From the NCBI GenBank assembly GCA_050733355.1, contig JBOHSY010000312.1, forward strand, positions 1 to 57,549: a stretch of 57,549 nt of DNA, read 5' to 3'. The stretch comes from Gemmatimonadales bacterium (GTDB lineage Bacteria; Gemmatimonadota; Gemmatimonadetes; Gemmatimonadales; GWC2-71-9). Shown one piece after another: positions 47-56,711 of the stretch (position 1 is the first letter of the stretch; the number at the start of each line of letters is the position of its first letter). Position numbers and translations under genes: made by a program. The notes under the pieces are model-generated. The model saw only the letters and a list, made by a program, of their open reading frames with translations. It was not told where the DNA came from and searched no databases.

Positions 47-113
47 GTGGGCAGTGAGCGGTGCGCGGTAAGCAGGTTTCGACCCTGCTCACTGCTCCCT
101 GCTTGCTGCTCAC
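47..113. repeat. Composite palindromic element E1: (GTGAGCG-like heptamer)x4, 7-nt loop, (TGCTCAC-like heptamer)x4
   Basis: Left arm 47-76 is GTGGGCA GTGAGCG GTGCGCG GTAAGCA GG. Loop is 77-83. Right arm 84-113 is CC TGCTCAC TGCTCCC TGCTTGC TGCTCAC. About 30 positions pair on the plus strand (3 mismatches, several G-T). The element starts 1 nt after the leuA stop codon. Confidence 0.8.
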
Positions 114-114
114 T

Positions 115-2116: not shown

Positions 2117-2148
2117 GGCCCGCTCCAGATGCTGGAGCGGGCCTTTTT
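2117..2148 (+). terminator. Intrinsic terminator immediately upstream of the gltB start
   Basis: Perfect 12-bp stem GGCCCGCTCCAG (2117-2128) / CTGGAGCGGGCC (2132-2143), followed by TTTTT (2144-2148). GGAGG follows at 2154-2158 and the ATG at 2163. Confidence 0.7.
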
Positions 2149-11762: not shown

Positions 11763-11899
11763 GGCGGGAGGGGCGGTAGAGACGGTACGGGCGGTCAGGG
11801 AGCGGCGAGAGTGGGAAGGCGGCCCGGTGGATGCCCCTGCCGGCTTTCGCAGCTGTGCAACCCCGGTACCGCCCGTACCGTCTCTACCGCCCTCCCGCC
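11763..11899. repeat. Composite palindromic element E2: 33/32-nt inverted arms with roughly 9-nt GGCGG periodicity, 72-nt core
   Basis: The left arm is GGCGGGAGGGGCGGTAGAGACGGTACGGGCGGT (11763-11795). The right arm ACCGCCCGTACCGTCTCTACCGCCCTCCCGCC (11868-11899) is its reverse complement apart from a 1-nt indel. The element lies between the ACAD stop (11752) and the queF ATG (11945). Confidence 0.85.
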
Positions 11900-11944
11900 C
11901 ACGTTTCTCCTGTTCTCACCGCCCTTCGCTACTACATTACCGGC

Positions 11945-16103: not shown

Positions 16104-16211
16104 GCTACAGCAGACCGGCGTTTCGTCAAGAGGACCCGCTACCTACGCGCCGCGGCTGGTCCGAGGTTCGGCCCAGACCTATAGTTCACGCCACCTCTTC
16201 CCAACCCCCCC

Positions 16212-19200
16212 GTGACCGACGCGGCCCGTCCGTCTTTGAAGCTCGAAACCGCGCTGGCCGGTCGTTACCGGATCGAGGGCAAGCTCGGCGAAGGGGGCAT
16301 GTCGGTCGTCTTTCGCGCCCGCGACCTCCGGCACGACCGCGCGGTCGCGGTGAAGATGCTCCGCCCCGAGCTGTCCGCCGCACTCGGCTCCGAGCGCTTC
16401 TTGCGCGAGATCCGCATCATCGCCGGGCTGCAGCACCCCCACATCCTGCCGTTGCACGATTCGGGTGATGCGGACGGCAATCTCTACTACGTGATGCCGT
16501 TCGTCGAAGGCGAATCGCTCCGCCAGCGGCTGGATCGCGAGGGCGCGCTACCGCCCGCCGACGCAGTGCGGATCGCCCGGGAAGTGGCGAGCGCGCTGGA
16601 TTACGCGCACGCCCACGGCGTGGTGCATCGCGACATCAAGCCCGAGAACATCCTGCTGGCCGGTCCCCATGCGATCGTCGCCGATTTCGGCATCGCGCGG
16701 GCCGTGGACATGGCGAGCGGCGCATCCGCTACCGCCACCGGGATCGTCGTCGGGACGCCGGCGTACATGAGTCCGGAGCAGGCGGCGGGCGAGACGCTCG
16801 ACGGGCGGAGCGACCAGTACAGCCTCGCCTGCGTGATCTACGAGATGCTGAGCGGCGCAGCCCCGTTTGCCGGGACCACGCCGCGCGAGCTGATGGCCCG
16901 CCACGCGATCGAGCCGGTCCCGCCGCTCAGCTCGGTGAAGCCGGAGCTGCCGCCCGCGCTCAGCATCGCGCTCGCGCGCTCGCTCGAAAAGCATCCCGGG
17001 GTACGCTACGGCAGCGCCGGCTCGCTGGCCGCCGCCCTGGCGGGGACCGCCACACCGGCCGGTGCCACCACTCCGGTGCCGCTGCCGGCGGTCCCGCGGC
17101 CCCGCCCGCGCATCCGAACGATCGGCGTGCTCGGAATCCTGCTCGCGATGGCGCTCGGCGTGGCGCTGTGGGCCCTGCACGGCCGCTCGGCGCGCCGCAC
17201 CCCGCCGGTGCCTCCCACTGCGCCGGGCGCGGCGACGGCCATCGCGGTGCTCCCCTTCGCGGTCTCCGGTAGCGACACGCTCGGGCTCTCCGAAGGCATC
17301 GTGGGGCTGCTGGGGACCAAGCTCGATGGCGCGGGTGATCTGCGGGTAGTGGATCCCCGCGCGCTGCTGAGTCACGTCGGGCAGGAGCGCGCCCCGCGCC
17401 TCGGCCCCGACCAGGGACGCGCCGTGGCCCGGCATTTTGGTGCGGGGCTGTACGTCCTGGGCGACGTGGTCCAGATCCCGGGGCGCTTGCGGCTGAGCGC
17501 GGCCATGTACGTGCCCGACCGCGGCGAGGCGATCGCGCGGGCCGAAGCCGAGGGAGATGTCGGTCGGCTCTTCGAGCTGGTGGACGACCTCACCGCACAG
17601 CTCCTGGCGGGGTGGAGCGGACGCGAGTCGCGCGTCAGCGGCATCGCCGCCGTGACCACCTCCTCGCTGCCCGCGCTCAAAGCGTACCTCGAAGGCGAGG
17701 CCGCGCTCCGGGACGCCCGCTTCGACCAGGCGATCGACGGATTTCAGCGCGCCATCGCGACCGACTCGATGTTCGCACTCGCGTGGTACCGGTTGAGCGT
17801 CGCGGGTGAATGGCTCACGCGCGACGATCTCGCGGGACCCGCCGCCGAGCGAGCCGCCCAGCTAGCCGGGCGGCTGCCCGAGCGTGAGCGGCGTCTCCTC
17901 GAGGCGATGCGGTCGGGCCGTCGCGGCGCCTTCGATGAAGCGCTCACCCGTTATCAAGCGATCATCTCGACGTACCCCGAGGATGTCGAGGCGTGGATTC
18001 AGCTGGCTGAGCTCCAGTTCCACTTCGGGCCCTGGCGGGCCCAATCGGCAAGTGAGTCCCGGCCTGCCTGGGAGCGGGTCCTGGCGCTCGATCCCAGTCA
18101 GATCGCGGCGAGGGTGCACCTGGCCCGCATCGCGGCGATCGAAGGCCGTTCCGGCGCGGTGGACACGCTGGTGCGCGAGATCCTGGCGCTGCACAGCGCG
18201 CCGGGTCGCGCGCCGGGCACGCGCTCCGAGGATCTGGAGATGGAAACGCTGCGGGCCTTCTCGATCCGGGACACCGCCGAGCAACGGCGGGTGCTGGCCG
18301 AGCTGGCTCAGGCGAGCGACCTGACGGTGACGCTGTCAGCGTGGGCCGCCGCCTCGTTCGCGTACGATCTTCCCGGCGCGATCTCGGTCGCGAGAGTGCT
18401 GACGCAGCCGTCGCGCGGCGGCACGGCGCGAGCGGTCGGATCTCTCACCGTGGCGTTTCTCGAGGCGGCGCGCGGGCGCATCGGCGAAGCGCGGCGGCAG
18501 CTGGCGCTCGCGGAGGCCGCCGACCCCGAGCGGACCCGCACGGGGCCTGCACTGCTCGCGGTAGCCCCCTTCGTCCGCACGCCACCTGCCGAGCTGCGTC
18601 GGCTGCTGGCAAGGGCCGTCGCCGCGCCGCCACCCGGACCCGATGATGACCGCGCCGGCCTCAGCGTCTATTTTCGGCGCACCCCGCCGGCGCAGGACCG
18701 CCGCACCCGCCTCTATCTGGCTGGCGTGCTCTCCGCCCGTCTTGGCGACCGCGCGCGGGCGGCCCAGCGAGCGGAGGAGCTGTCCGCGCTGGCGCGCTCC
18801 GACTCCGGGTCGCTCGCCGCGGACTTCGCGCATGGCATCCGGGCGGAGCTCGCGATGACCCGGGGCAACGCCGAGGAGGCGCTCCGCGAGGTCGAGGGAA
18901 TGCGGCACGAGACGTACTACATCACCGCGTTCGCGTTCCCCGAGCTCTCCCAAGCTCGGGAGCGGTACTACCACGCCGAGGCGCTCGCGCGTCTCGGCCG
19001 ACCGGAGGAGGCGCTCCGGTGGTTCGGATCGTTCGCGGAGTTCTCGCCCTACGACATGTTGTACTCGGCGGTGGGGCATCGCCGCCGGGGCGAGATCCTC
19101 GAATCGCTGGGCCGGCGGGAGGCGGCGGCACAAGAGTACGCGCAGTTCATCGAGCTGTGGAAGGAGGCGGATCCGGAGCTGCAGCCGGCCGTGCGCGAAG

Positions 19201-19238
19201 CCCGTGTCGCAATGGGGAGACTGAGCAGTGAACGGTAA
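16212..19238 (+). CDS. Ser/Thr protein kinase with TM segment and large TPR-like C-terminal domain
   Basis: GEGGMSVVFRA, AVKML, HRDIKPENILL, DFG and SPEQ motifs. TM segment IGVLGILLAMALGVALWAL. C-terminal TPR-like repeats. GTG start. Confidence 0.85.
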   Translation: MTDAARPSLKLETALAGRYRIEGKLGEGGMSVVFRARDLRHDRAVAVKMLRPELSAALGSERFLREIRIIAGLQHPHILPLHDSGDADGNLYYVMPFVEGESLRQRLDREGALPPADAVRIAREVASALDYAHAHGVVHRDIKPENILLAGPHAIVADFGIARAVDMASGASATATGIVVGTPAYMSPEQAAGETLDGRSDQYSLACVIYEMLSGAAPFAGTTPRELMARHAIEPVPPLSSVKPELPPALSIALARSLEKHPGVRYGSAGSLAAALAGTATPAGATTPVPLPAVPRPRPRIRTIGVLGILLAMALGVALWALHGRSARRTPPVPPTAPGAATAIAVLPFAVSGSDTLGLSEGIVGLLGTKLDGAGDLRVVDPRALLSHVGQERAPRLGPDQGRAVARHFGAGLYVLGDVVQIPGRLRLSAAMYVPDRGEAIARAEAEGDVGRLFELVDDLTAQLLAGWSGRESRVSGIAAVTTSSLPALKAYLEGEAALRDARFDQAIDGFQRAIATDSMFALAWYRLSVAGEWLTRDDLAGPAAERAAQLAGRLPERERRLLEAMRSGRRGAFDEALTRYQAIISTYPEDVEAWIQLAELQFHFGPWRAQSASESRPAWERVLALDPSQIAARVHLARIAAIEGRSGAVDTLVREILALHSAPGRAPGTRSEDLEMETLRAFSIRDTAEQRRVLAELAQASDLTVTLSAWAAASFAYDLPGAISVARVLTQPSRGGTARAVGSLTVAFLEAARGRIGEARRQLALAEAADPERTRTGPALLAVAPFVRTPPAELRRLLARAVAAPPPGPDDDRAGLSVYFRRTPPAQDRRTRLYLAGVLSARLGDRARAAQRAEELSALARSDSGSLAADFAHGIRAELAMTRGNAEEALREVEGMRHETYYITAFAFPELSQARERYYHAEALARLGRPEEALRWFGSFAEFSPYDMLYSAVGHRRRGEILESLGRREAAAQEYAQFIELWKEADPELQPAVREARVAMGRLSSER

Positions 19239-19323
19239 GCGGTGAGCGGTGAGCGGGAGACGAGCCCGTGGGCCCGATTCTGCTGGGGGCCCCCTGCTTA
19301 CTGCTCACCGCTCACCATTTTTT
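19221..19323. repeat. Composite palindromic element E3 (GTGAGCG heptamers) with T6 tract; likely also the kinase-gene terminator
   Basis: Left arm is CTGAGCA GTGAACG GTAAGCG GTGAGCG GTGAGCG (19221-19255), and the kinase TAA (19236-19238) sits inside it. The core holds GGGCCC...GGGCCC. Right arm is CTGCTTA CTGCTCA CCGCTCA CC (19294-19316), then ATTTTTT running into the speA stop (19322-19324). Confidence 0.8.
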
Positions 19324-27019: not shown

Positions 27020-27661
27020 ATGGCCTACGCCGTCAAGGAGATCTACTACACGCTCCAGGGCGAAGGCGCGCAGGCCGGCCGGCCGGCGGTGTTCTGCCGG
27101 TTTGCCGGGTGCAACCTCTGGACCGGCCGCGAGGCCGACCGGGCGTCCGCCGTCTGCGATTTCTGCGACACCGATTTCGTCGGTACCGACGGTCCCGGGG
27201 GCGGGAAGTTCACGGCCGCGGCCGATCTCGCGCGCGCGGTGGACGCCGCCTGGCCCGCGGACGCAGCCGCCGGGGGGCGCAAGTTCGTCGTGTGCACGGG
27301 GGGCGAGCCGCTGCTGCAGCTCGACGCCGAGCTGGTCGGCGCGCTGCACGAGGCGGGATTCCAGGTGGCGGTGGAGACCAATGGCACTCAGGATCCTCCG
27401 GCGGGGCTGGATTGGATCTGCGTGAGCCCGAAGGCCGGCGCCGAATTGCGGCTCCGGTCCGGCGACGAGCTGAAGCTCGTCTATCCCCAGCAGGGCGCGG
27501 AGCCCGCGCGTTTCGAGCGGCTCGACTTTCGGCACTTCTTCCTCCAGCCGATGGACGGGCCGGAGCGCGACGCCAACACCCATGCCGCGCTGGTCTACTG
27601 CCTGGCGCATCCGCGCTGGCGGCTGAGCCTTCAAGCTCATAAGCTTCTCGGAATTCCGTAG
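27020..27661 (+). CDS. queE: 7-carboxy-7-deazaguanine synthase (radical SAM)
   Basis: KEIYYTLQGEG, then Cys spacing C-x14-C-x2-C (GCNLWTGREADRASAVCDFC). It starts 4 nt after queC. Confidence 0.9.
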   Translation: MAYAVKEIYYTLQGEGAQAGRPAVFCRFAGCNLWTGREADRASAVCDFCDTDFVGTDGPGGGKFTAAADLARAVDAAWPADAAAGGRKFVVCTGGEPLLQLDAELVGALHEAGFQVAVETNGTQDPPAGLDWICVSPKAGAELRLRSGDELKLVYPQQGAEPARFERLDFRHFFLQPMDGPERDANTHAALVYCLAHPRWRLSLQAHKLLGIP

Positions 27662-27776
27662 GGCGGGAGAGGGCGGGAGAAGGCGGCAGCGGGCGGGAGC
27701 GGCTGCAAAACGAGCCTCCTGAGTGCCCTGTCCATCTCCCGCCCGCTCCCGTCCGCTCCCGACCACTCCCGCCCCG
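27660..27776. repeat. Composite palindromic element E4: (GGGCGGGAGA-like decamer)x4, 32-nt core, (CTCCCGCCCG-like decamer)x4
   Basis: Left arm 27661-27703, core 27704-27735 (contains CGAGCCTCC), right arm 27736-27775. About 32 of 38 positions are complementary. It spans from the queE stop to 6 nt before the HD-gene ATG. Confidence 0.85.
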
Positions 27777-33221: not shown

Positions 33222-33434
33222 ATGGCTCGCACCACTGGCACGGTGAAGTGGTTCAACGACGCGAAGGGGTTCGGCTTCATCACCCCGGAGAACGGCGACA
33301 AGGACTGCTTCGTCCACCACACCGCCATCAAGATGGACGGCTTTCGCAGCCTCACCGAGGGCGAGAGAGTCGAGTTCGACATCGTGCAGGGTGCGAAGGG
33401 CCCCGCTGCCGAGAACGTGACGAAGGCGAAGTAA
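33222..33434 (+). CDS. cspA: Cold-shock protein (CspA family)
   Basis: [15 protein letters not shown] (RNP1) and DCFVHH (RNP2), 70 aa. SD CAGGAG. Confidence 0.95.
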
Positions 33435-33435
33435 A

Positions 33436-33604
33436 CGGTATCGGCTATCCGCTATCGGCTATCGGCTATCCGCCTGTTCCGATGCATGCGAGCCTCCGAG
33501 GTCCCTAGGGCACCGGAGGCTCTCGCACGTTCGGAGCAAGCGGATAGCGGATGGCCGAAAGCGGATAGCGGATAGCGGATAGCGGATAGCCGATAGCGGA
33601 TAGC
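33436..33604. repeat. Composite palindromic element E5: (GCTATCS)x5, 66-nt core with GAGCCTCCG/CGGAGGCTC hairpin, (GCGGATA)x9
   Basis: Left heptamers 33437-33471. Core stem 33490-33498 / 33514-33522. Right heptamers 33540-33602. It fills the gap between the cspA stop (ends 33434) and the infA stop (starts 33605). Confidence 0.9.
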
Positions 33605-33823
33605 CTACTTGTGCCTGTAGATCACCCGTCCCCGGGTAAGATCGTAGGGCGAGAGCACGACGGTTACGCGGTCGCCTTCCAGCACCCGGATCTTGAACTT
33701 GCTCATCTTGCCGGCGGCGTACGCGAGGATCTCGTGACCATTCTCCAGCATGACCCGGTAGTTGCGGTCCGGGAGCACCTCGGTCACCACTCCCTCCATC
33801 TCGATGCCTTCTTCCTTGGCCAT
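33605..33823 (-). CDS. infA: Translation initiation factor IF-1
   Basis: [72 protein letters not shown], 72 aa, S1-like fold. SD GGAGAG. Confidence 0.95.
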
Positions 33824-35960: not shown

Positions 35961-37837
35961 GTGGGGTCCGGGCTCGAGCCCTGCGCGTGCCGGTGGTAGA
36001 GATAGGCGAGCAGCAGCGACACGAGGCCGAGGATGAACACCGAGGCGACCCGGTACAGCGCATCGAGCGAAGCCAGATCGAAGACCAGCACCTTGAGCAC
36101 GGCGAGCCCGGCCACGCACAATCCAGCGAGCCGGGCGGGCCGGATGCCGCGGCGGAGCCCGAGCGTCACGAGCCCCGCGGCGAATACGAGCCACCAGGCG
36201 CTCACCGACAGCCCGCTCGCGAGCGAGGCGGTGGCTCGCGTAGGCGCCTCCAGGCGGAAATACCGCCGGATCTCTTCGGTGACGCCGAACAGCGCCAGGG
36301 CACCCGCGACGAGCCAGAGGCCGCGGCAGACCAGTCGCGCGGCGTCGTTGAGCGGCACTCGCTTCCAGAGCCCGGCGGCAAGGGCGGTGGTGACGCCGAG
36401 GGCGAGCCACTGGACCCCGGCCCAGGCGCCGGTGAACGCCCGCTCGTGATAGTCGCGCCGCGAGGCGTCCGCGTCGTACAGATGCGCGAGCGCGAGCGCC
36501 AACGTGCCCACCGCGTACCAGCGTCCGTCGCTCCGTCCGAGCCGATGGTCGAGCGCCGCCCAGAGCGCCGTGAGGCCGAGCAGCACGAGCGTCGCCTCGA
36601 GCCCGGTCCAGCGCTCCAGCGCGGCCACGGCGAGCGCGGCCGCGCCCACGAAGGCGAACGCCGGGCGCGGACTCGTGTAGCCGACCACGAGATAGGGAAC
36701 CGCCACCACCAGCGCGGCGAGCCCATCGTGCTCGGCGAAGATGGTGGGCGCCAGGGTCCGGACGGCCCAGCCGAGCAGCACCGGGGTGGCAAAGAAGTAG
36801 AGCGCCTCGCCCGGCGACCAGCGGTCTCGCCGCAGGAGGCCGTGACGCCAGACCGGCGCCGCGAGCAGGAGGCCGGCAACGAAAATGGGCCAGCGCGGGT
36901 GCAGCCGCTCGGCGACGGTGGCGAGCAGCGCCCAGCCGCCCCAGAACGCGAGGAAGCGCGTCTCCCACCACCGCTCGCGCAGCCCGACCCATACGCCTCC
37001 GGCCCCGCCGAGCACCGCGTACGCGAGCGCGCCCGCGGGCCGCCGCGACTGGGCGGCGGCGGCCCAGCCGAGGCTGAAGAAGCTCACCGCGATTGCCGCC
37101 ATGGTGTAGCGCCACCGGCGGCGGGCGGCGACCCAGCCAAGCGCGGCGGCCATCGAGCCCTGGTACAGGAGCAGGAGATCGGCGTCGGCGCGCTCCCGTC
37201 CCAACAGCACCGGTGCGACGAACGCGCCGAGCACTGCCGTGAGTCCGAGCGCCTCGACGTCGATGGCGTAGGCGATGGCCGCGAGGGACAGCGCGACGAG
37301 CGCGAGCCCGGCGATGCCGGTGGTCGGGGGCAGGAAACCGTAGAGCCGCGCGGCCGCCCAGACCGACAGGTAGATGATCGCCGCACCGCAGCCGATGAGC
37401 GCGGCGCCGTAGATGCGATAGCGGCCGTGCAGCCGCCAGCCCAGCGCGCCGACGCCGACGCCGGCCAGCACGCCGCCGGCACACCGCATCGCGGGTGAGA
37501 TCCAGCCCCGGTCGAACGACAGCTTGAGCAGATAGCCGGCCGCGAGAATCAGCGCGAAGACGCCGACGGCGAGGAGGCCGCGCTGACCGATCCACTGCTC
37601 GAAGGGGCGAGAGGCCGGGAGCGGGCGGGAGCGGACGGGAGAGGGAGGGATCGGGGGAACCGGCGGCGGCGCCAGAACCGGTGGAGCCGACATCGGCGTA
37701 GTCGCGTCTTCCGGCTCCCGCCCGCTCCCGCCCGCTCCCGCCCTTTCCCGACTGCCGGCGGTCGCGAGGTCCCGCACCAGCGACTCCAGCACCGCCATGC
37801 GCTGCTCCAGCCGGTCCAGCCGTTCGTCCACCGACAT
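35957..37837 (-). CDS. DUF2339-family polytopic membrane protein
   Basis: N-terminal coiled-coil MSVDERLDRLEQRMAVLESLVRDL, a Pro-rich linker, then about 16 TM segments. SD GGAGG 5 nt upstream of ATG 37837. Confidence 0.75.
   Translation of the reverse strand: MSVDERLDRLEQRMAVLESLVRDLATAGSRERAGAGGSGREPEDATTPMSAPPVLAPPPVPPIPPSPVRSRPLPASRPFEQWIGQRGLLAVGVFALILAAGYLLKLSFDRGWISPAMRCAGGVLAGVGVGALGWRLHGRYRIYGAALIGCGAAIIYLSVWAAARLYGFLPPTTGIAGLALVALSLAAIAYAIDVEALGLTAVLGAFVAPVLLGRERADADLLLLYQGSMAAALGWVAARRRWRYTMAAIAVSFFSLGWAAAAQSRRPAGALAYAVLGGAGGVWVGLRERWWETRFLAFWGGWALLATVAERLHPRWPIFVAGLLLAAPVWRHGLLRRDRWSPGEALYFFATPVLLGWAVRTLAPTIFAEHDGLAALVVAVPYLVVGYTSPRPAFAFVGAAALAVAALERWTGLEATLVLLGLTALWAALDHRLGRSDGRWYAVGTLALALAHLYDADASRRDYHERAFTGAWAGVQWLALGVTTALAAGLWKRVPLNDAARLVCRGLWLVAGALALFGVTEEIRRYFRLEAPTRATASLASGLSVSAWWLVFAAGLVTLGLRRGIRPARLAGLCVAGLAVLKVLVFDLASLDALYRVASVFILGLVSLLLAYLYHRHAQGSSPDPT
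37604..37750. repeat. Composite palindromic element E8 (GCGGGCGGGA decamers) lying in frame inside the DUF2339 CDS
   Basis: Left decamers are GAGGCCGGGA GCGGGCGGGA GCGGACGGGA GAGGGAGGGA (37611-37650). Right decamers are CCGGCTCCCG CCCGCTCCCG CCCGCTCCCG CCCTTTCCCG (37711-37750). At least 23 of 25 nt are complementary in the best register. It has the same unit and orientation as E4. Confidence 0.8.
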
Positions 37838-39095: not shown

Positions 39096-40798
39096 CCCGC
39101 CGCGCCGCCCCGCCGGTCCGCCGCGGCCGCGAACACCAGGGCGCTCAGCACCATCAGCACGACGCCGTACGCGGCTGCCACGCCCACGTCGGCCTGACGG
39201 AGACTGGACAGGATCTCGAGCGAGATCGGCCGGGTATCGTAGGTGTAGAGCACGATCGAGGTCACGAAGTCGCCAAGCGCCGTGACGAACGCCAGGGTCC
39301 CGCCCGCCACGAGCGAGGGGCGTAGCAGCGGCAGGGTGACCGCCGCGAGCGTGCGCCAGCGTCCGGCGCCGAGCGCCGCGGCGGCCTCGTCGAGCGATGG
39401 GTCGAGCGCCCGGAAGCCGGCCAGCGTGGCGCGGCTGGTGAGCGGCAGACTGCGAACCAGATAGGCGAGCGGGAGGATCCACACGGTGCCCACCAGGATC
39501 CAGCGCCCGGCCAGGGGCTCGCGCACGCTGAACGCGGTGGCGAGCGCGATGGCGAATACCGTTCCCGGCACGGCCCACGGGAGGCCGAGGAGCGCCTCGA
39601 GGATCCGCCGGCCGGGCGCCCGGCGGCGCACCACCAGAACCGCGGCCAGGACGGCGATCGCGATCGATACGGCCGTCGCCGCCGTCGCGAGCCCGAGGCT
39701 GTTGAGCAGCGGACGCAGGCGCACGGGATCCCGCACCAGCGTGGCGTAGTTGCCCAGCGTCCAGGCCGGCGGGATGGCCTCCGTGGTCCAGGTGCCGACC
39801 GGGACGAGCGACACCACGAACAGCGTCAGGTGCGGCAGGAGGAGCAGGCCCGCGAGCCCCCAGGAGAGGAACGCGAGCCCGGCGCGCGCGAGAGGCCGGC
39901 GCACCCGGACGGGCGCCGGCGCAGCGCCCTTTCCCCCGCCCCGCGCCGGCTCGCGGTCGGCATCGCGGAAGAGAACCAGCGCCGCGAGCGCGAGCACCGT
40001 CAGCGACACGGTCTCCACCATCGCCAGCGCCTCCTCGCCGTTGAGACGGGTGGCCACGATCTGCGTGGTCATCACGCGGTATCCGCCGCCGAACACGTAC
40101 GGGGCGCTGAACGAGGCGAGCGACGTCATGAAGGTGAGCAGCGCCGCCCCGGTGAGGGCGGGCCGCAGCGCGGGCAGAACGACCTGGCGGAGCGTCCGCC
40201 AACGGCCGGCCCCGAGGCTCGCGGCCGCCTCGAGCTGCGCCCCGTCGAGCGACAGGAGCGCGGCGCGCACCAGCAGGTAGAAGTACACGTACATCGAGTA
40301 CGCGTGCACCAGCAGGATCGCGCCCGCGCCCTCGAGCCGCCACGGCGGCTCCTCGAGACCGAGTGCCGCCTGCACCGCGCGGGCCAGGAAGCCGGACTCG
40401 CCGTAGAGAAAGAGGAACGCGACGACGCCCACCAGCGGCGGGAGCACGGCGGGGAGCGCCACGATCCCCGCCAGGAGCCGCCGGCCCGGAAAATCGTAGC
40501 GGGCGAACAGCACAGCGAGCGGTATGCCGACCAGCGCCGCGAGCAGGACACTCGCCAGGGACACGAGCAGGCTGCCCCTGAGTGCCTGCCACTCGGTGGG
40601 CCGCGCGGCGAACTCCCGCACATGCTCGAGCGTCCAGCCGCCGGGCCCGTGCACGCCTTCGACGAACACGAGCATCAGCGGATAGATCACCAGCCACGAC
40701 AGGAAGAGCAGAAGAGCAGAGGAGCCGAAGAGCCGGGGTGCTGCGCGGGGCCTTGGGCGGTCGAGCCGGCTGTCCGGCACATCTGCCCTTCCGCTCAT
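39092..40798 (-). CDS. ABC transporter permease, fused two-domain type (Fe3+/thiamine-family architecture)
   Basis: 568 aa with two homologous 6-TM halves, as in FbpB/ThiP-type permeases. The ATG overlaps the ATPase stop (ATGA at 40795-40798). Confidence 0.85.
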   Translation of the reverse strand: MSGRADVPDSRLDRPRPRAAPRLFGSSALLLFLSWLVIYPLMLVFVEGVHGPGGWTLEHVREFAARPTEWQALRGSLLVSLASVLLAALVGIPLAVLFARYDFPGRRLLAGIVALPAVLPPLVGVVAFLFLYGESGFLARAVQAALGLEEPPWRLEGAGAILLVHAYSMYVYFYLLVRAALLSLDGAQLEAAASLGAGRWRTLRQVVLPALRPALTGAALLTFMTSLASFSAPYVFGGGYRVMTTQIVATRLNGEEALAMVETVSLTVLALAALVLFRDADREPARGGGKGAAPAPVRVRRPLARAGLAFLSWGLAGLLLLPHLTLFVVSLVPVGTWTTEAIPPAWTLGNYATLVRDPVRLRPLLNSLGLATAATAVSIAIAVLAAVLVVRRRAPGRRILEALLGLPWAVPGTVFAIALATAFSVREPLAGRWILVGTVWILPLAYLVRSLPLTSRATLAGFRALDPSLDEAAAALGAGRWRTLAAVTLPLLRPSLVAGGTLAFVTALGDFVTSIVLYTYDTRPISLEILSSLRQADVGVAAAYGVVLMVLSALVFAAAADRRGGAAG

Positions 40799-41886
40799 CT
40801 GCTCTCCCGCTCCTCAGCGAAGAGATGGATTCCGCCCCCGCTGCGTCGGCTCGGCGCGAGGCCCACTCGATCGCCGGGATGCGCGGCGCTGCCGGGGCCG
40901 CTCACCTCGAGCAGTGTGCCCGCGTCGGTGCGCAGCAGATACAGCGAGTTCGCCCCCGCGAACCGCCGCTCGAGCACCATCGCGGCCAGGAGGCCGGGGT
41001 CCGGCCGGGCGAGCCAGAGCGCTTCGGGCCGCAGCAACACTCGCACCGCGCTCCCGACCTCGAGCGCGCGCTGTACGCCGGCGTCGGCCGGCACGCCCCA
41101 GACGCAGCTCTCGACCCCGACCCGCGCGCCCTCCGCCGTGAGGTCGAGGATCCGGCCCCGCAGCTCCGACGCGCGGCCGACGAACCGTGCCACGAATGGG
41201 CAGGCCGGAGCGTCATACAGCTCGTCGGGCGTGCCCACTTGCTCGAGCCGGCCGTCTCTGAGCACGGCCACCCGATCGCCGAGATCGAACGCCTCCTCCT
41301 GCTCGTGGGTCACGAGCACGGTGGTGATGCCGACCCGGCGGATCACGTCCCGGAGCTCGTGCCGCGTGCGCTCGCGAAGGGTGGGGTCGAGGTTGGAGAG
41401 CGGCTCATCCAGCAGCAGGACCCGCGGCTCGGGCGCGAGCGCCCGCGCCACGGCGACCCGCTGCTGCTGCCCGCCCGAGAGCTGGGCGATCCGGCGACGC
41501 TCGTAGCCGGCGAGATCCACCAGCGCGAGCGCCTTCGCGACCCGGTGCTCGAGGTCGCCGCCGCGTACCCCGAGCGACTCGAGACCGAACGCGATGTTGT
41601 CGCCGACATCGAGATGAGGAAACAGCGCGTAGTGCTGGAAGACCATTCCGAAGCGGCGGGCCGCAGGCGCGAGAGGGGTGACGTCGGCGCCCTCCACGAG
41701 GACCCGGCCGGCATCCGGCGCCTCGAATCCCGCGAGGAGGCGGAGCGTGGTCGTCTTGCCACTGCCGCTCGGCCCGAGCAGTGCCAGGATCTCGCCACGC
41801 GCGAGCGCGAGCCACACGTTGTGCACGGCGACCTGATCGCCGAATCGGCGCGTCAGGCCCTCGAGCGAGAGGAACGCCTCGGTCAC
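40795..41886 (-). CDS. ABC transporter ATP-binding protein (FbpC/PotA-like with C-terminal TOBE-like region)
   Basis: Walker A GPSGSGKTT, signature LSGGQQQRV, Walker B LLLDEP. GTG 41886 overlaps the SBP stop (GTGA). The ORF is open to 41931. Confidence 0.88.
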   Translation of the reverse strand: MTEAFLSLEGLTRRFGDQVAVHNVWLALARGEILALLGPSGSGKTTTLRLLAGFEAPDAGRVLVEGADVTPLAPAARRFGMVFQHYALFPHLDVGDNIAFGLESLGVRGGDLEHRVAKALALVDLAGYERRRIAQLSGGQQQRVAVARALAPEPRVLLLDEPLSNLDPTLRERTRHELRDVIRRVGITTVLVTHEQEEAFDLGDRVAVLRDGRLEQVGTPDELYDAPACPFVARFVGRASELRGRILDLTAEGARVGVESCVWGVPADAGVQRALEVGSAVRVLLRPEALWLARPDPGLLAAMVLERRFAGANSLYLLRTDAGTLLEVSGPGSAAHPGDRVGLAPSRRSGGGIHLFAEERESR

Positions 41887-42932
41887 GGCCGGCCGGTATG
41901 GCGCACGTGCCGGTCCCAGTAGCTCATCCATGCGGGGCCCCGGGAGGATGCGAGCTCCCAGTCCATCTCCGCCACCACCATCTCACGCTCCACCTCAGCC
42001 ACCCACGCAGGCACGCGGTCCGGCGGCAGATCGCGGCGCGCCGGGAGGCGGAACACCCCGCTGGCGGCGAGAAGCTGGCCGTCCACGCTGCCGACGAAGT
42101 CGATGAAGGCCCGGGCCACCTCGGGATGACGGCTCCCGCGCACCAGCCCGATCGCGTCGTCGATCACCACGGTTCCGCTCCGGGGAAAGACGTAGTCGAA
42201 CGGCATGCCCTTCGACCGGCCGATCAGGATGTCGGGCAGGTCCCAGAGCGTGACCAGGCCCTCCTGCCGCGCGAGCTTGGCGTCCAGTACCGCGGGGTTA
42301 AGCGCGTATGCCCTGGTCTGCGCGTCGAGCCTGCGGAGCCACGCCATCCCCTGCGCGGTATCCCCGGTCTCGCGGATGCTCCGCACCAGGATTAAGGCCC
42401 AGATCGCCCGCATGGTACCGCTGGCCATCGGGTCGCGGATCAGCACCTTGTCGGTCCAGCGGGGGGCGAGCACTTCGTCCCAGTCGTGCGGCGCCGTGGC
42501 GCGGGTGACCGCGCGCGCGTTGAAGGCGATGACTGCCGGTGTCCGGTACGCCGGATAGTAGAGATCGGCCGGCCCCGCCGCGCGACTGTCCACGGCCCCG
42601 GCCCACGCGGGGCGGTACGGCGCCAGCAACGAGTCCCGGACGCCGCGTTCGAACAGGGTGGTAGGCCCGCCGAACCAGACGTCGGCCTGCGGGTTGACCC
42701 GCTCGAAGCGGAGCCGGTCCAGGATCTCCTGGCTGCCCATGTCGAGCCAGCGTACGTCCACGGCGGGATGCCGTCGCTCGAACTCGCGCTCGAGCAGCGT
42801 GAGCTGATCCCGGCCATGGGGCGAGTAGAGCAGGAGGGGTGTTCGGTCGTCACGCGCGCATCCGAGCAGCGCGAGCAGCAGCAAAAGCAGTTCACACCGA
42901 GGCGCGGAGAACAACTTTCCGCGTGGTCTCAC
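41883..42932 (-). CDS. ABC transporter periplasmic substrate-binding lipoprotein (family 1, Fe3+/thiamine/polyamine-like)
   Basis: GTG 42932 gives VRPRGKLFSAPRCELLLLLLALLGC (lipobox LLGC). LLLYSPHG...DVWFGG is typical of this SBP class. The start is uncertain (alternative GTG at 42956). Confidence 0.72.
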   Translation of the reverse strand: MRPRGKLFSAPRCELLLLLLALLGCARDDRTPLLLYSPHGRDQLTLLEREFERRHPAVDVRWLDMGSQEILDRLRFERVNPQADVWFGGPTTLFERGVRDSLLAPYRPAWAGAVDSRAAGPADLYYPAYRTPAVIAFNARAVTRATAPHDWDEVLAPRWTDKVLIRDPMASGTMRAIWALILVRSIRETGDTAQGMAWLRRLDAQTRAYALNPAVLDAKLARQEGLVTLWDLPDILIGRSKGMPFDYVFPRSGTVVIDDAIGLVRGSRHPEVARAFIDFVGSVDGQLLAASGVFRLPARRDLPPDRVPAWVAEVEREMVVAEMDWELASSRGPAWMSYWDRHVRHTGRP

Positions 42933-43023
42933 GTCCAGGCATCCAGCATCTTGCACATGAGGCCCCGATAATGGCGGTTCTCCGCGTCCTCCGCGCCTCG
43001 GTGTGAACCTCTCGGAGCCCGGC

Positions 43024-47744: not shown

Positions 47745-50564
<2,820 letters not shown>

Positions 50565-50706
50565 CCGCTATCCGCTATCCGCTATCCGCTTGGAGTAGGC
50601 GAGCCTCCGTGTCCTTGGACATCGGAGGCTCACTTGCTTCGGGGCACGCGGATAGCGGATAGCGGATAGCGGATAGCGGATAGCGGATAGCGGATAGCCG
50701 ATAGCG
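50565..50706. repeat. Composite palindromic element E6: (GCTATCC)x3, 58-nt core with GAGCCTCCG/CGGAGGCTC hairpin, (GCGGATA)x7 + GCCGATA
   Basis: Left heptamers 50567-50587. Core stem 50601-50609 / 50623-50631. Right heptamers 50648-50703. It fills the gap between the acnA stop (ends 50564) and the sigma-factor stop (starts 50707). It has the same unit, core and orientation as E5. Confidence 0.9.
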
Positions 50707-51600
50707 CTACGCTACAAAATCCCGAATCCGGTCGCCGGTGTCCCCTACGCGCAGGCGGAGCAGCGCGCGGTCGCGGAGCTGGCGAATGCGCTCGCGGGTA
50801 ACCCCCATCATCCGGCCGATCTCCTCGAGCGTGCGGCTGTTGCCGTCGTCCAGGCCGAAGTAGAGCCGGAGCACCTTGGCGTCGCGCGGCGGCAGCGTGG
50901 CGAGCGCGAGCTCGATGTCCCGGGTCTGGCTGTTCACGAGCGTGGAGGCGTCGGTGCTCTCCTGCTCGCCGGTGGAGAACCGCTCGATCCGCTCGTTGCC
51001 TTCGCCGTCCCGGGTGGGATGGTCGAGCCGGACCGCTTCGGAGTTGAGGGCGCTGAGGCTCCGCACCGCCTCGACCGTGAGCCCGGTGGCGCGGGCGAGC
51101 TCTTCGGTGGTCGGCATGCGGCCGAGCCGGTCCTTGAGCAGCGTCGTGGTACGACCCAGCCGGCTCAGGTCGGCCGTGCGGTTGAGCGGCACCCGGACCG
51201 GGCGGCCGTGCCGGGCGATGGCGGCCTGCACCGCCTGCCGGATCCACCAGACCGCGTAGGAGATGAACTTGACGCCGCGGTCCGGATCGAACTTGCGCGC
51301 CGCCGTCATCAGCCCGAGGTTCCCCTCGCCGATCAGGTCGACGAGCGGCACGCCCCGGTTCTGGAACTTCTTGGCCACCGACACGACGAAACGCACGTTG
51401 TGCCGCGCCAGCCGCTCCTGGGCGACGACGCTGCCCTTGAACGCCTTGCGCGCGAGCTCCATTTCCTCCTCGCGATTGAGAAGGGGGACCCTGCTGATTT
51501 CATCCAGATAAAGGTCGAGACTCTCTCTGCCTTCGTCCACTGCGCGAGCGATCTGGGCCGGCCGGACCGGGCGCCGCTTGGCACGTGGCTTCACACTCAC
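50707..51600 (-). CDS. RNA polymerase sigma-70 family factor (group 2/3-like, 297 aa)
   Basis: Region 2 (FISYAVWWIRQAV) and region 4.2 (TLEEIGRMMGVTRERIRQL). GTG start with SD GGAGGA. Confidence 0.9.
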   Translation of the reverse strand: MSVKPRAKRRPVRPAQIARAVDEGRESLDLYLDEISRVPLLNREEEMELARKAFKGSVVAQERLARHNVRFVVSVAKKFQNRGVPLVDLIGEGNLGLMTAARKFDPDRGVKFISYAVWWIRQAVQAAIARHGRPVRVPLNRTADLSRLGRTTTLLKDRLGRMPTTEELARATGLTVEAVRSLSALNSEAVRLDHPTRDGEGNERIERFSTGEQESTDASTLVNSQTRDIELALATLPPRDAKVLRLYFGLDDGNSRTLEEIGRMMGVTRERIRQLRDRALLRLRVGDTGDRIRDFVA

Positions 51601-53399: not shown

Positions 53400-54805
53400 C
53401 CTACGGGCTGGTGCAGGCGGCCTACCTCGTGGCGACGGCGCTGTTCGTCTTCGCGCTGCACTGGATGAACCACCCGAAGACCGCCCGTCGCGGGGTGTCC
53501 GCGGGCGTGGCGGGCATGGCGATCGCGGTCATCGCCACGTGGGCGCAGCCCGCGATCGTGCACCACGTCTGGATCGTCGTGGCAGTCATCGCGGGGTTCG
53601 GGGTCGGCGTTCCGCTCTCGATGGTGCCGCTCACGGCGGTGCCGCAGCGGACCGCGCTGTCGCACGCGTTCGGCGGCCTCGCGGCCGGCCTCGTGGGCGC
53701 GGCGAAGTATTACCTCTGGCTGGGCGACGCCCCCGAACAGCTCACCGCGTTCCGCATGACCGCGATCATCATCGAGATCATCCTGGGCTTCCTGACCTTC
53801 ACCGGAAGCCTGATGGCAGCGGGCAAACTGCAGGAGGTGAAGTGGATCCCGCAGCGGCCGGTCACCTATCCGCTTCAGAACGTCACCAACCTGGCGCTCT
53901 TCCTCCTCGCGGCCGCGATCGGGGTGGCGCTCGCGATGAACCCGACCGCCGACTGGGCACCTCGGGTTTTCCCCATCATCATCGTCCTCGCGCTCCTCTT
54001 CGGCATCCTGCTGATCATCCCGATCGGGGGCGCGGACATGCCGACCGTGATCGCGATCCTCAACGCGTACGCGGGGCTCGCGGCGGTGGCGATGGGTTTC
54101 GTGCTGGACAACAAGCTGCTGATCACGGCCGGCGCGCTCGACGGCTCGAGCGGGCTCATCCTCGCCATCATCATGTGCAAGGCGATGAACCGCTCGTTCA
54201 CCAACGTGCTGTTCGGCGCGTTCGGCCAGGTGCAGCAGCTCAAGGCAGGCGGCGAGCAGCAGCAGTACAAGTCCGAGACCATCGAGGGCGCCGCCCAGGT
54301 GCTGGAGCAGGCACACACGGTGGTGATTGTCCCGGGCTACGGCATGGCGGTGGCCCAGGCGCAGCACAAGGTGCGCGAGCTGTACGACCAGCTGCGGAAG
54401 CGTGGCATCACCGTGAAATTCGCCATCCACCCGGTGGCGGGCCGCATGCCGGGCCACATGAACGTGCTCCTCGCCGAGGCGGACATCCCGTACACCGATC
54501 TCGTGGAGATGGACGAGATCAACCCCGATATGCCCCAGTGTGACGTGGCGCTGGTTGTGGGCGCGAACGACGTCGTGAACCCGGCGGCGCGCAGCGACAA
54601 GTCGAGTCCCATCTTCGGCATGCCGATCATCGACGCCGATAAGGCACGCACCGTGTTCGCGATCAAGCGGAGCAAGAACCCCGGCTTCGCGGGGATCGAC
54701 AACGCGCTCTACTTCTCCGACCGCACCTGGATGCTGTTCGGCGACGCCAAGGGGGTCGTCGGCGAGCTGGCCAAGCAGATGAGCGGGAACAGCGCAATGC
54801 ACTAG
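53396..54805 (+). CDS. pntB: NAD(P) transhydrogenase subunit beta
   Basis: ATGA overlap with pntAB. Membrane dII-b plus C-terminal dIII (VIVPGYGMAVAQAQH, HPVAGRMPGHMNVLLAEA). Confidence 0.93.
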   Translation: MTYGLVQAAYLVATALFVFALHWMNHPKTARRGVSAGVAGMAIAVIATWAQPAIVHHVWIVVAVIAGFGVGVPLSMVPLTAVPQRTALSHAFGGLAAGLVGAAKYYLWLGDAPEQLTAFRMTAIIIEIILGFLTFTGSLMAAGKLQEVKWIPQRPVTYPLQNVTNLALFLLAAAIGVALAMNPTADWAPRVFPIIIVLALLFGILLIIPIGGADMPTVIAILNAYAGLAAVAMGFVLDNKLLITAGALDGSSGLILAIIMCKAMNRSFTNVLFGAFGQVQQLKAGGEQQQYKSETIEGAAQVLEQAHTVVIVPGYGMAVAQAQHKVRELYDQLRKRGITVKFAIHPVAGRMPGHMNVLLAEADIPYTDLVEMDEINPDMPQCDVALVVGANDVVNPAARSDKSSPIFGMPIIDADKARTVFAIKRSKNPGFAGIDNALYFSDRTWMLFGDAKGVVGELAKQMSGNSAMH

Positions 54806-54887
54806 GATGGCCAGATGGTCGGATGGTCAGACGATCGGTGTGAGGCTGGCCCTTCGGATCATCTGACCATCGGTCCCTCCGACCAGC
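54806..54887. repeat. Composite palindromic element E7: (GATGGTCN octamer)x4, 16-nt core, (complementary octamer)x4
   Basis: Left arm is GATGGCCA GATGGTCG GATGGTCA GACGATCG (54806-54837). Right arm is CGGATCAT CTGACCAT CGGTCCCT CCGACCAG CC (54855-54887). It fits exactly between the pntB TAG (54803-54805) and the convergent gene's stop (54888-54890). Confidence 0.8.
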
Positions 54888-56711
54888 CTACAGCGGCAGT
54901 CTCAGTCCCGGTATCTGGATCCCGGCGGTCAGGTCTTTCAGTTCCCCGCGGAGCTGCTGCTCGACCTCCTCCAGCTTCTGCCGCTCGGCCTCCACTCGCT
55001 GCCGTCCCTCGGTCTCCACCGCCGCCACCTGCTGCCGCACCTCTTCGGTCTTGGCCGCGACGAGCTTGTCCACCTCCGCTCGGACCTTCTGCTCCGCCAT
55101 TGCCAGCTCCTCCCCCACCACGGCCTGCAGCCGGGCGCTCACCGCCTGGTCCAGGTTGGTGCTCACCCCCAGCTTCGGCGCCTTCACGGTCCCGGAGAGC
55201 ACGGCGGTGACGCGGAGATCGGTGAGGCCCGAGAGCACCCGCCACACGATCCGCTCGATCTCGTTCAGTCGCCGCGCGCTGGTATCCACCGTCCACTGTA
55301 CCTTGTTCGACGCGACCGACCACCGCCCGCGGATCTCGTCGCCGCGGAGCACGAACGAGAGCCCGCTCCGGCCCGATCCCGGATCGAGCCGCACCGGCAG
55401 GCCGGGCAGATTGAACGCCGGGAGACCGACGCCGTCGGCGATTGCGCTGATGGAATCGCGCGTGCGGGTGGTCAGATGGTCGAGCACCGCATCCACCCGC
55501 AGGGCGGCGAGCACCGGGCCGTCCGCCCGCCTCCGGGCGGAGATCACCGTCGGCTTTCCGTAGAGCGCGGGAGCCGAGGTGAGCCCGCGAACAGTCGCCG
55601 CATACCTGCCGGCGAGCACGCCTTCACCCGCGAGGGTGAAGTCGACGTTGCCCGCCTCCAGCAGGAACGAGGGATAGGTCCGCTCCTTGGGAAACCGCAC
55701 CGTACTGCCGGCCATCCGCAGCCGGTCGGGCCCGGTGGTCTCGCGAGGCAGCAGTCCGGGCGGCATGTAGTGGCGGCCGAGCTGCACCCAGTACATGGCC
55801 TGCTGAAAGCGCTCGACGCTTACCTGCCCGAAGAACGCCTTGCCGATCGCGGGTGCGGCGAACGAGGGAAGCTGGAGCAGGCTCCGGGCGAACTCGTAGT
55901 CGCGGCGCCGCGCTTCGTCGACTTCCTTCAGGCCCGCGCCGAGCTGGTTCACGCCGCGGAGGGCGTCCTTGCCGAGGGTCTCGATCTGCCGCTTGGCGTC
56001 CTCGACCTGTCGGATGCTCCGCTGCACCGACGCAATGGCGTCCCGCGTGCCCTGGATTCCGAGCGTCCGCGGGTTCAGCGTGTCGAGCCGGGCCACGAGC
56101 GCCCGTGCCGAATCGATAGTGGGCCCGACGGGCACGCCGCGGAGCCCCTGCTCGATGGCGCGCCGGGTCGAGTCGGTGCGTGCGGCGAGCGACGTGGCGG
56201 CCTGCACCGTGCCGAGCTTGGTCGGATCCAGCGCGAGCGCACGGATCGTGTCGATCGGCGTGAGCTTGAGCAGCGGCACGTCGAACTGGCTGGCCCACTG
56301 CCGCACCGCCCGCACCATCTGGGGCGCGAAGCCGTCCCCGCGCGCGGGGCGGGCCGGCGTCTCCCGCTTGGTCCCGAACTGCATGCCGCGGAGCGCCAGG
56401 TTCCGAACCACGAGCTTCTTCTCGGCGAGCGCCTCCGGGTCCACCGTGAGGTGCACGCTTCCGGCCTCCACGAGGTTCCGGCTCATGTCGAACGGATCGG
56501 CCACCTCGATCCGCCAGAGGTCCGCGCCGATCTCCCGCGGCCTGAGGTCGAGCTTGCTCACGTCCACCTGGGTGCCGAGCAGGTCGGTGCTCACGTCCTC
56601 CGTGGTCTCCTCGGCCACCGGCTCGGCGAAGAGTACCCCCAGCACGCCGATGCCGATGAGCGCCAGCAGCAGCGGTGCGATCGCCTTCCAGCGGAAGATC
56701 TTGATCTGCAC
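54888..56711 (-). CDS. TIGR03545-like family protein (N-terminal TM anchor, long helical/coiled-coil protein, 607 aa)
   Basis: MQIKIFRWKAIAPLLLALIGIGVLGVLF anchor and C-terminal coiled coil. Size and pairing with a DUF2062-like partner match my recollection of the TIGR03545/TIGR03546 pair. Confidence 0.6.
   Translation of the reverse strand: MQIKIFRWKAIAPLLLALIGIGVLGVLFAEPVAEETTEDVSTDLLGTQVDVSKLDLRPREIGADLWRIEVADPFDMSRNLVEAGSVHLTVDPEALAEKKLVVRNLALRGMQFGTKRETPARPARGDGFAPQMVRAVRQWASQFDVPLLKLTPIDTIRALALDPTKLGTVQAATSLAARTDSTRRAIEQGLRGVPVGPTIDSARALVARLDTLNPRTLGIQGTRDAIASVQRSIRQVEDAKRQIETLGKDALRGVNQLGAGLKEVDEARRRDYEFARSLLQLPSFAAPAIGKAFFGQVSVERFQQAMYWVQLGRHYMPPGLLPRETTGPDRLRMAGSTVRFPKERTYPSFLLEAGNVDFTLAGEGVLAGRYAATVRGLTSAPALYGKPTVISARRRADGPVLAALRVDAVLDHLTTRTRDSISAIADGVGLPAFNLPGLPVRLDPGSGRSGLSFVLRGDEIRGRWSVASNKVQWTVDTSARRLNEIERIVWRVLSGLTDLRVTAVLSGTVKAPKLGVSTNLDQAVSARLQAVVGEELAMAEQKVRAEVDKLVAAKTEEVRQQVAAVETEGRQRVEAERQKLEEVEQQLRGELKDLTAGIQIPGLRLPL

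Follow-up and report, generated by a model that had tools for sequence, protein, structure and literature searches.

In the window, by which we mean the whole 57,549-nt (57.5-kb) stretch of Gemmatimonadales DNA that was analysed and whose genes are all ordinary chromosomal genes, the aconitate hydratase gene acnA (47745-50564, plus strand) converges on a gene for a sigma-70-family factor (50707-51600, minus strand). The acnA product (939 aa) is 100% identical to P0001 and contains Aconitase and Aconitase_C domains, and an orthologue of the sigma factor contains the Pfam domains Sigma70_r1_2, r2, r3 and r4. The gap between the two genes is fully occupied, as the original prediction had it, with the acnA TAA at 50562-50564 and the sigma stop codon at 50707-50709. 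What fills it from stop codon to stop codon is an element that we refer to as E6 (50560-50706), in which two arrays of seven-nucleotide units flank a core hairpin. The left arm (50560-50587) consists of a variant unit GCTAACC (50560-50566), within which the acnA stop codon sits, and three copies of GCTATCC; the variant unit had been overlooked in the original prediction, which otherwise described the core and the right arm as we find them. The left spacer GCTTGGAGTAGGC (50588-50600) is, in an alignment with related copies, a trimmed form of a family sub-arm GCYTGCTCCGA-N5-8. It is followed by the core hairpin GAGCCTCCG-TGTCC-TT-GGACA-T-CGGAGGCTC (50601-50631), in which a 9-bp basal stem, with its strands GAGCCTCCG at 50601-50609 and CGGAGGCTC at 50623-50631, encloses TGTCCTTGGACAT with an inner GTCC/GGAC stem. 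The right spacer ACTTGCTTCGGGGCAC (50632-50647) contains a sub-arm TTCGGrrC that pairs with the left spacer, and the right arm (50648-50706), with eight GCGGATA-type units (seven GCGGATA and one GCCGATA, then GCG), adjoins the sigma stop codon. Tandem Repeats Finder reports a period of 7 on both sides (CGCTATC x4.6 at 50559-50590 and GCGGATA x8.4 at 50648-50706, each with 96% matches), an inverted-repeat search of the window recovers opposite-strand array pairs (inverted repeats I7-I13), and Rfam 15 gives no match at the gathering score across the whole window.

The window has two matches to the stem pattern GAGCCTCCG/CGGAGGCTC, one at 33490-33522 and the other at 50601-50631, and 100 shuffles have none, so that the stem said to be common to two copies is indeed the same stem. 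The sister copy, E5 (33437-33604), has five left units, a 70-nt middle that includes the core hairpin at 33490-33522, and nine right units, and it fills the gap between a cold-shock gene, csp (33222-33434, plus strand), and the convergent infA (33605-33823, minus strand). Two further likenesses that had been claimed for the pair carry less weight. The right arms do not end identically, for E5 runs one unit further (GCGGATAGCC) past ...GCGGATA GCCGATA, and the shared plus-strand orientation is almost empty as evidence because the reverse complement of (GCTATCC)n-core-(GGATAGC)m has the same layout.

A single continuous hairpin is predicted for E6 on either strand; the plus strand gives -106.8 kcal/mol with z = -10.6, and the minus strand -99.8 kcal/mol with z = -11.7. 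As regards terminator features, it presents a GC-rich hairpin directly downstream of a stop codon, and, as read from the sequence, there is no U-tract 3' of its stem on either strand, the stem being followed by GCTACGCTAC on the plus strand and by GCAATCCC on the minus strand. A terminator scan reported nothing at the E6 site, and canonical terminator matches in the window stand at chance level (13 found, about 15 expected). Only one hairpin in the window (2117-2143) convincingly resembles a canonical terminator, with TTTTTGTT after a stem of 12 bp; it lies at the annotated 5' end of a glutamate synthase ORF whose true start is probably further downstream.

The acnA-sigma gap in related genomes

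Besides the window, we recovered six further versions of the acnA-sigma gap. The element is present in three of them, and its arm units (left/right), as counted in metagenome assemblies, which can misassemble repeats, are 4/8 in the window, 7/6 in L143 (94% AcnA identity to the window), 5/5 in L144 (93%) and 7/4 in L112, which is the same as L113 (92%). The remaining three are without arrays: L114 (91%) and L145 (90%) have the basal stem CGAGCCTCCG with another loop and with non-repetitive complementary outer arms, and L115 (85%) has an unrelated hairpin. AcnA homologues assign the contig to Gemmatimonadales; the nearest named genome is the MAG GCA_050733215.1, with 92% AcnA identity, and the array-bearing orthologues differ by 7-14% in acnA nucleotide sequence. 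The original prediction had taken the unequal arm lengths of two copies in one genome to suggest slippage-type dynamics, and the differing counts at one and the same site in relatives support this: the arms gain and lose units quickly. In the acnA tree the array-bearing genomes form one group with L114 and L145 as its sister, a topology under which one gain and one loss of the arrays at this site are equally parsimonious. Because the basal stem is present without arrays in these sister lineages, the core may be native to the acnA site.

Every orthologous acnA-sigma gap examined folds into a gap-spanning hairpin (z = -4 to -16), among them the gaps of L114, L145 and L115, whose outer arms have unrelated sequences. 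At this site, then, the shape is conserved while the sequences of the arms turn over. We also note that the L143 contig stops right after the element and that in the metagenome locus L128 the same gene end lies inverted on both sides of the element, a palindromic arrangement that is probably a foldback assembly chimera; array-armed repeats of this kind disturb short-read assembly.

A core family and the csp-infA series

An alignment of seven copies of the core (E6, L112, E5, L116, L014 and the metagenome loci L128 and L136) yields the family consensus (GCTATCC)n GCCTGCTCCGA N5-8 CGAGCCTCCG nTGTCC..GGACAT CGGAGGCTCG N5-8 TCGGAnC nnGC (GGATAGC)n, with a central stem-loop CGAGCCTCCG ... GTCC-N2-3-GGAC ... 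CGGAGGCTCG. What E5 and E6 share thus exceeds the 9-bp stem and includes the sub-arm GCYTGCTCCGA / TCGGAnC. When a 72-column profile of the core was run with nhmmer over 1.3 Mb, it recovered E5, E6, their orthologues, L014, L128 and L136 at E = 1e-8 to 1e-15, and everything else in the 1.3 Mb had E > 7e-4. The core is therefore present at five unrelated loci, two of them in the window (the acnA-sigma, csp-infA, L014, L128 and L136 sites, E <= 1e-8), and the common descent of E5 and E6 within a dispersed family, as originally proposed, is borne out. Each of these loci is at the 3' end of a gene: four are clearly gaps between convergent genes, and the fifth is known only from the chimeric contig. 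The bare 9-bp stem was rejected as a marker of the family, since 19 of its 21 metagenome matches are unrelated hairpins that carry it by chance or within other repeats. As a separate observation, an 11-nt sequence, GGAGGGATTGC, lies just left of the element both at the end of acnA (window 50548-50558) and at the unrelated locus L136 (392-402), whose flanks are otherwise not homologous to acnA or the sigma gene.

In the seven-copy alignment 96% of the cells are paired, and both sides have changed in 7 of 49 pairs, as against 2.8 +/- 1.2 in shuffles (0 of 500 shuffles reach 7); for example, GAGCC/GGCTC in most copies is GGCCC/GGGCC in L014. Compensatory changes in a DNA palindrome can, however, arise without selection on RNA, through intra-hairpin template switching. 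The G.U versus A.C asymmetry, which could distinguish RNA-level from DNA-level selection, stands at 7 versus 3 cases, too few for such a distinction, and in a convergent gap both strands are transcribed. The spacers of the copies differ by about 25-30%, and orthologous copies are more alike than E5 and E6 are within the window, which implies that dispersal is old and gives no sign of homogenisation within a genome. Judged by these sequence comparisons, the copies are old and diverged, and nothing points to recent activity or bursts.

The csp-infA gap provides a series of empty and filled sites. Exact matches to IF-1 gave six readable versions of the gap in relatives (L116-L121). Four of these (L117, L119, L120 and L121) have gaps of 68-79 nt with nothing but a two-way terminator, made up of an A-tract, a GC hairpin and a T-tract. 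L116 has this terminator together with an element of the same core, which separates it from the infA stop codon; in L118 the terminator is accompanied by an element that has similar arms and a different core; and the window has the element only, the canonical terminator being gone. Presence or absence of the element at this site is thus polymorphic, empty sites in relatives being what the original prediction had said to look for, with four sites empty and three filled, the filled sites having 5/9, 4/3 and 4/4 arm units. In trees of both flanks the window and L116 group together, L118 and L120 come close to this pair and the remaining empty sites fall outside, so that empty sites are basal or unresolved in position; these trees indicate that the element is derived at csp-infA, where it is an insertion beside an ancestral canonical two-way terminator. 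The series suggests that the element can take over from the canonical terminator, a step that we read from the comparison of present-day gaps. We note that some of the 'empty' sites are not entirely featureless: in L120 (3220-3240, minus strand) a single unit-like AGCCGATACC adjoins the infA stop codon, and L117 and L119 (3220-3260) have GGATGGG..CCCATCC as a mini-hairpin, features that could have seeded arrays or be what is left of them.

GGATAGC arms away from the core

Searching 185,579 species genomes for runs of three perfect GGATAGC units gave at least 111 loci. Those listed include several apiece from Gemmatimonadales, Acidobacteriota, Gemmataceae and MAGs of Gammaproteobacteria, Steroidobacterales-like and other, and also L021, L030 and L085 from the cultured Povalibacter uvarum. 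The closest MAG, JBOHSN01, has at least seven array loci, and the window has two. The exact core stem is absent from the 111 array loci listed, which indicates that the arms are not tied to the E5/E6 core; in the same clade GGATAGC arrays also enclose middles of 10-130 nt that are quite unlike that core, and arrays are found ahead of start codons as well as in gaps that separate divergent genes or tRNA genes. GGATAGC-armed elements at L040, L047, L054 and L078, for instance, lie upstream of start codons or between divergent genes, so that the arms as such are not bound to gene 3' ends.

Across loci there are at least 28 inverted array pairs, and the order of their arms follows lineage. Among the matches listed, together with the window, the C-rich arm comes first in 14 of 14 pairs from Gemmatimonadota, and among the matches listed it does so in both pairs from Gemmataceae; among the same matches the G-rich arm comes first in 10 of 10 pairs from gammaproteobacterial genomes, one of them the pair of the cultured Povalibacter uvarum DSM 26723 (L085, 3362-3431). 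An arm order that is fixed in each lineage argues against random local birth, which should give about half of each.

The notion that GGATAGC is special as a single array was rejected: in a viral-contig control it gave 6 loci, and three composition-matched heptamers gave 6, 7 and 1, so that such heptamers are about as frequent and isolated arrays, whatever the heptamer, are common. Cross-phylum matches alone therefore prove nothing, insofar as a control of single arrays in viral contigs can speak to them. One of the control heptamers, GGTAAGC, occurs in a viral contig (L156, 2161-2315) as an inverted array pair, and inverted heptamer pairs are thus not peculiar to GGATAGC.

Hairpins with arms of other short tandem units number eight or more in the window, E5 and E6 aside. 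With these two included, array hairpins span four convergent gaps from one stop codon to the other and occupy four gaps between tandem genes, and in both kinds of gap they follow directly after stop codons. Apart from E5 and E6, six intergenic hairpins follow stop codons, at 50-114, 11763-11900, 19222-19319, 27660-27774, 42890-43008 and 54803-54890. Five of these have arms made of GTGAGCG-type 7-mers, GGCGGTA-type 9-mers, GGGCGGGAG 10-mers or GGATGGTC 8-mers, and the one at 42890-43008 is a plain inverted repeat; in all of the array-armed intergenic hairpins of other units the G-rich arm comes first. The hairpin at 54803-54890 extends from stop codon to stop codon with both stops within its terminal units, and at 19222-19238 the last codons and the TAA of a gene for a 1017-aa Ser/Thr kinase (16185-19238) are themselves GTGAGCG-type units (...LSSER*). 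L112 keeps the window's array hairpins at the same sites with changed unit counts and cores. Its GGATGGTC-armed hairpin, for one, has a 4-nt loop (17034-17105), as against a 19-nt middle in the window (54795-54895), from which it appears that middle segments come and go while arms stay.

Readings of the element and its relation to known repeats

E6 belongs to a hairpin-forming, dispersed and insertion-polymorphic element with fast-changing microsatellite arms. Our preferred reading, which we hold with moderate confidence, is that it is a member of a small, lineage-restricted group of intergenic repeats of foldback type in Gemmatimonadales, forms a two-way transcript-end hairpin, spreads rarely and without a transposase, and changes in length by slippage. 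Judging by its position and shape, a two-way transcript-end role is the most likely one for E6. Both convergent genes would be transcribed into the element, and the RNA hairpin, whose folding energy is about -100 kcal/mol for each strand, would serve as a two-way terminator, as a barrier to 3'-exonucleases, or as both; such a hairpin would be functionally REP/BIME-like and could replace a terminator with a U-tract. The element would reach new sites rarely and without a dedicated transposase, probably through templated copy-insertion or through ectopic gene conversion in which the shared arrays supply the homology, and the length of its arms would then drift by replication slippage until the stop codons are met.

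A purely local origin, in which a native terminator stem was lengthened by microsatellite slippage together with intra-hairpin template switching, nothing moved between sites, and E5 and E6 came to resemble each other by convergence, seems to us unlikely. The acnA site does fit growth around a native hairpin, as L114 and L145 hold the basal stem there without arrays and with other complementary outer arms, and the window's other hairpins use site-specific units (GGATGGTC, GTGAGCG and GGGCGGGAG) at sites that are kept in L112. What local growth does not account for is that the sub-arm, the core and the inner GTCC/GGAC stem are common to five unrelated loci, that at csp-infA the element lies beside and not around the native terminator and is lacking in basal relatives, and that the order of the arms among the matches listed is uniform within Gemmatimonadota and uniformly opposite in the gammaproteobacterial genomes.

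We regard as similarly improbable a non-autonomous element driven by a transposase, whether a MITE or a REP/REPIN whose hairpin or heptamer arms are the target of a mobilising RAYT (Y1/HUH) enzyme. The original prediction had suggested a mobile or recombining family and had named target-site duplications and a RAYT-like or other nuclease gene as signs to look for; dispersal and empty sites stand, and the sequences examined support neither duplications nor a transposase. Dispersed copies, insertion polymorphism, the hairpin form and the preference for 3' intergenic sites, as in REPs, would all suit an enzyme of this kind, as would the uniform polarity of the arms in each lineage, but no consistent target-site duplication flanks the 17 copies examined. 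In 16 of them direct repeats at the borders are 5 nt or less; the only candidate is L048 (381-545), a GGATAGC-armed element with a different core, which has a 9-bp direct repeat, GAGAAGCTA, at both borders. Moreover, neither the 57.5-kb window nor the flanks examined contain a transposase, a RAYT-like gene or a Y1 domain, copy number is low, and the divergence of the spacers speaks against recent bursts. E6 also lacks the traits of REPs, in that it has no GTAG-type head, its arms are arrays of 7-mers instead of 20-40-nt palindromes, and its only palindrome is the central core.

Among RNA-binding factors, Rho favours C-rich RNA that lacks structure, and HutP and CsrA recognise UAG-N4 and GGA motifs. 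That the arms provide the docking site of a factor specific for repeats in single-stranded RNA, either with the C-rich, G-poor (GCUAUCC)n after both stop codons as a Rho loading site or with the UAG-N4 or GGA periodicity of (GGAUAGC)n binding a ring-shaped or dimeric RNA-binding protein, is in our view very unlikely: both convergent transcripts in Gemmatimonadota do meet the C-rich arm first, and the arrays do begin at, or a few bases from, the stop codons, but the arm order is reversed in the gammaproteobacterial genomes, the remaining array hairpins of the window are built of other units with the G-rich arm in front, the repeats are base-paired once both arms have been transcribed, and no candidate protein was identified.

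With the foldback-type family as our preferred reading, E6 can be placed among known repeats. Heptamer arrays are a class of repeat already on record, if little studied, with inverted pairs (Rehm et al. 2015, PMC4692102) and with one heptamer common to several phyla (MacGregor 2015, PMC4679880). Rehm et al. described intergenic heptamer arrays of unknown function, GGGAATC in Xanthomonas and GGGGAYT in Nostoc, with many near-perfect array loci per genome, a non-coding bias close to ORF ends, 70-75 convergent inverted array pairs per genome that are able to form stem-loops, and the same intergenic sites occupied in related species with extensive variation in length (PMC4692102); by the account given there, an excess of heptamers was first noted by Mrazek et al. 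2007. E6 resembles this type in its near-perfect 7-nt tandem units, which are non-coding, adjoin ORF ends and occur at several loci per genome, in its closely spaced pair of opposite-strand arrays, and in the occupation of the same site in relatives with variation in length. It differs in its host, a member of the Gemmatimonadales, and in its unit: GGATAGC, as read from the sequence, has no run of three G and hence, unlike the Xanthomonas and Nostoc units, no G-tracts and no quadruplex potential. The E6 family differs further in that a core hairpin and sub-arm travel with the arms at several loci, and for GGATAGC we document empty sites, replacement of a terminator and a lineage-fixed arm order, which go beyond the type described by Rehm et al.

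MacGregor (PMC4679880) described arrays of the heptamer TAACTGA in Beggiatoaceae, Cyanobacteria and Bacteroidetes, which are like the GGATAGC arrays in that one heptamer forms intergenic arrays in distant phyla with no known mechanism of transfer; the TAACTGA arrays differ in being almost all direct (with one inverted case) and in lying just upstream of start codons. The REP, BIME and REPIN sequences of Proteobacteria are likewise short, GC-rich extragenic palindromes in 3' or intercistronic gaps that make up dispersed families; they are frequently transcribed, and stabilisation of upstream mRNA or help with termination is ascribed to them. REPs are, however, imperfect palindromes of 20-40 nt with a conserved head tetranucleotide, are present in hundreds of copies and are linked to RAYTs, whereas the E6 family has 7-mer microsatellite arms of variable length and five core loci among the sequences searched. 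Foldback transposons (Drosophila FB; Tetris, PMC4079207) also have long inverted arms built from short tandem repeats, arms that may differ in length, and a middle that is variable or absent, as in the GGATGGTC element of L112; they are eukaryotic, of kilobase scale and associated with a transposase and target duplications, and the resemblance is architectural only, with nothing to suggest homology. Bidirectional intrinsic terminators, of which the csp-infA gap of relatives holds a textbook example, share with E6 a GC-rich hairpin centred in a convergent gap, but E6 has no flanking A- or U-tracts and a stem of about 50 bp as against 8-15 bp. Our literature search found no published GGATAGC arrays, nothing on Gemmatimonadetes repeats and no bacterial foldback element. 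What is new here is the Gemmatimonadales unit, a core that travels with the arms, the series of empty, filled and terminator-lost sites, and the lineage-fixed order of the arms.

Many bacterial genomes contain heptamer arrays in excess, and where these come from and what they do has been a standing question since they first came to notice. The csp-infA series (terminator only, terminator plus element, element only) is a clean comparative set, and the acnA-sigma series leads from a hairpin without arrays to arrays of four different lengths; the two series make it testable whether arrays substitute for a canonical terminator and whether they spread as units with the core. Povalibacter uvarum DSM 26723, as a cultured carrier of the GGATAGC heptamer, is open to experiments.

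It is a long shot that GGATAGC arrays are not passive microsatellites at all but are written or maintained by a sequence-specific system that can move between bacteria, and candidates for such a system, equally speculative, would be a protein that binds the repeats or an activity that adds or copies them from a template. Active writing would explain why multi-locus GGATAGC families are found in at least 10 genomes from four phyla (Gemmatimonadota, Acidobacteriota, Steroidobacterales-like Gammaproteobacteria and Planctomycetota) and why arm order is fixed by lineage. As an observation apart, Steroidobacteraceae MAGs (L032, L008, L016 and L044) have GTGAGCR/GTGAGTC heptamer arrays nested beside their GGATAGC arrays, and these closely resemble the GTGAGCG-type arrays of the window (50-114 and 19222-19319), a likeness that makes two heptamer families common to two phyla.

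Lastly, we note that inverted arrays in the window also occur within genes. At 37585-37771, inverted 10-mer arrays CGGGAGCGGG / GCTCCCGCCC lie within the N-terminal coding region of a DUF2339 protein (minus strand), where they encode a low-complexity Pro/Arg/Ser/Ala linker. Arrays of GAAGAGCA type with their complement (40703-40812) are found where an ABC ATPase gene and a permease gene overlap, and are coding according to the annotation of L112; these arrays are present in L112 and absent in L114.
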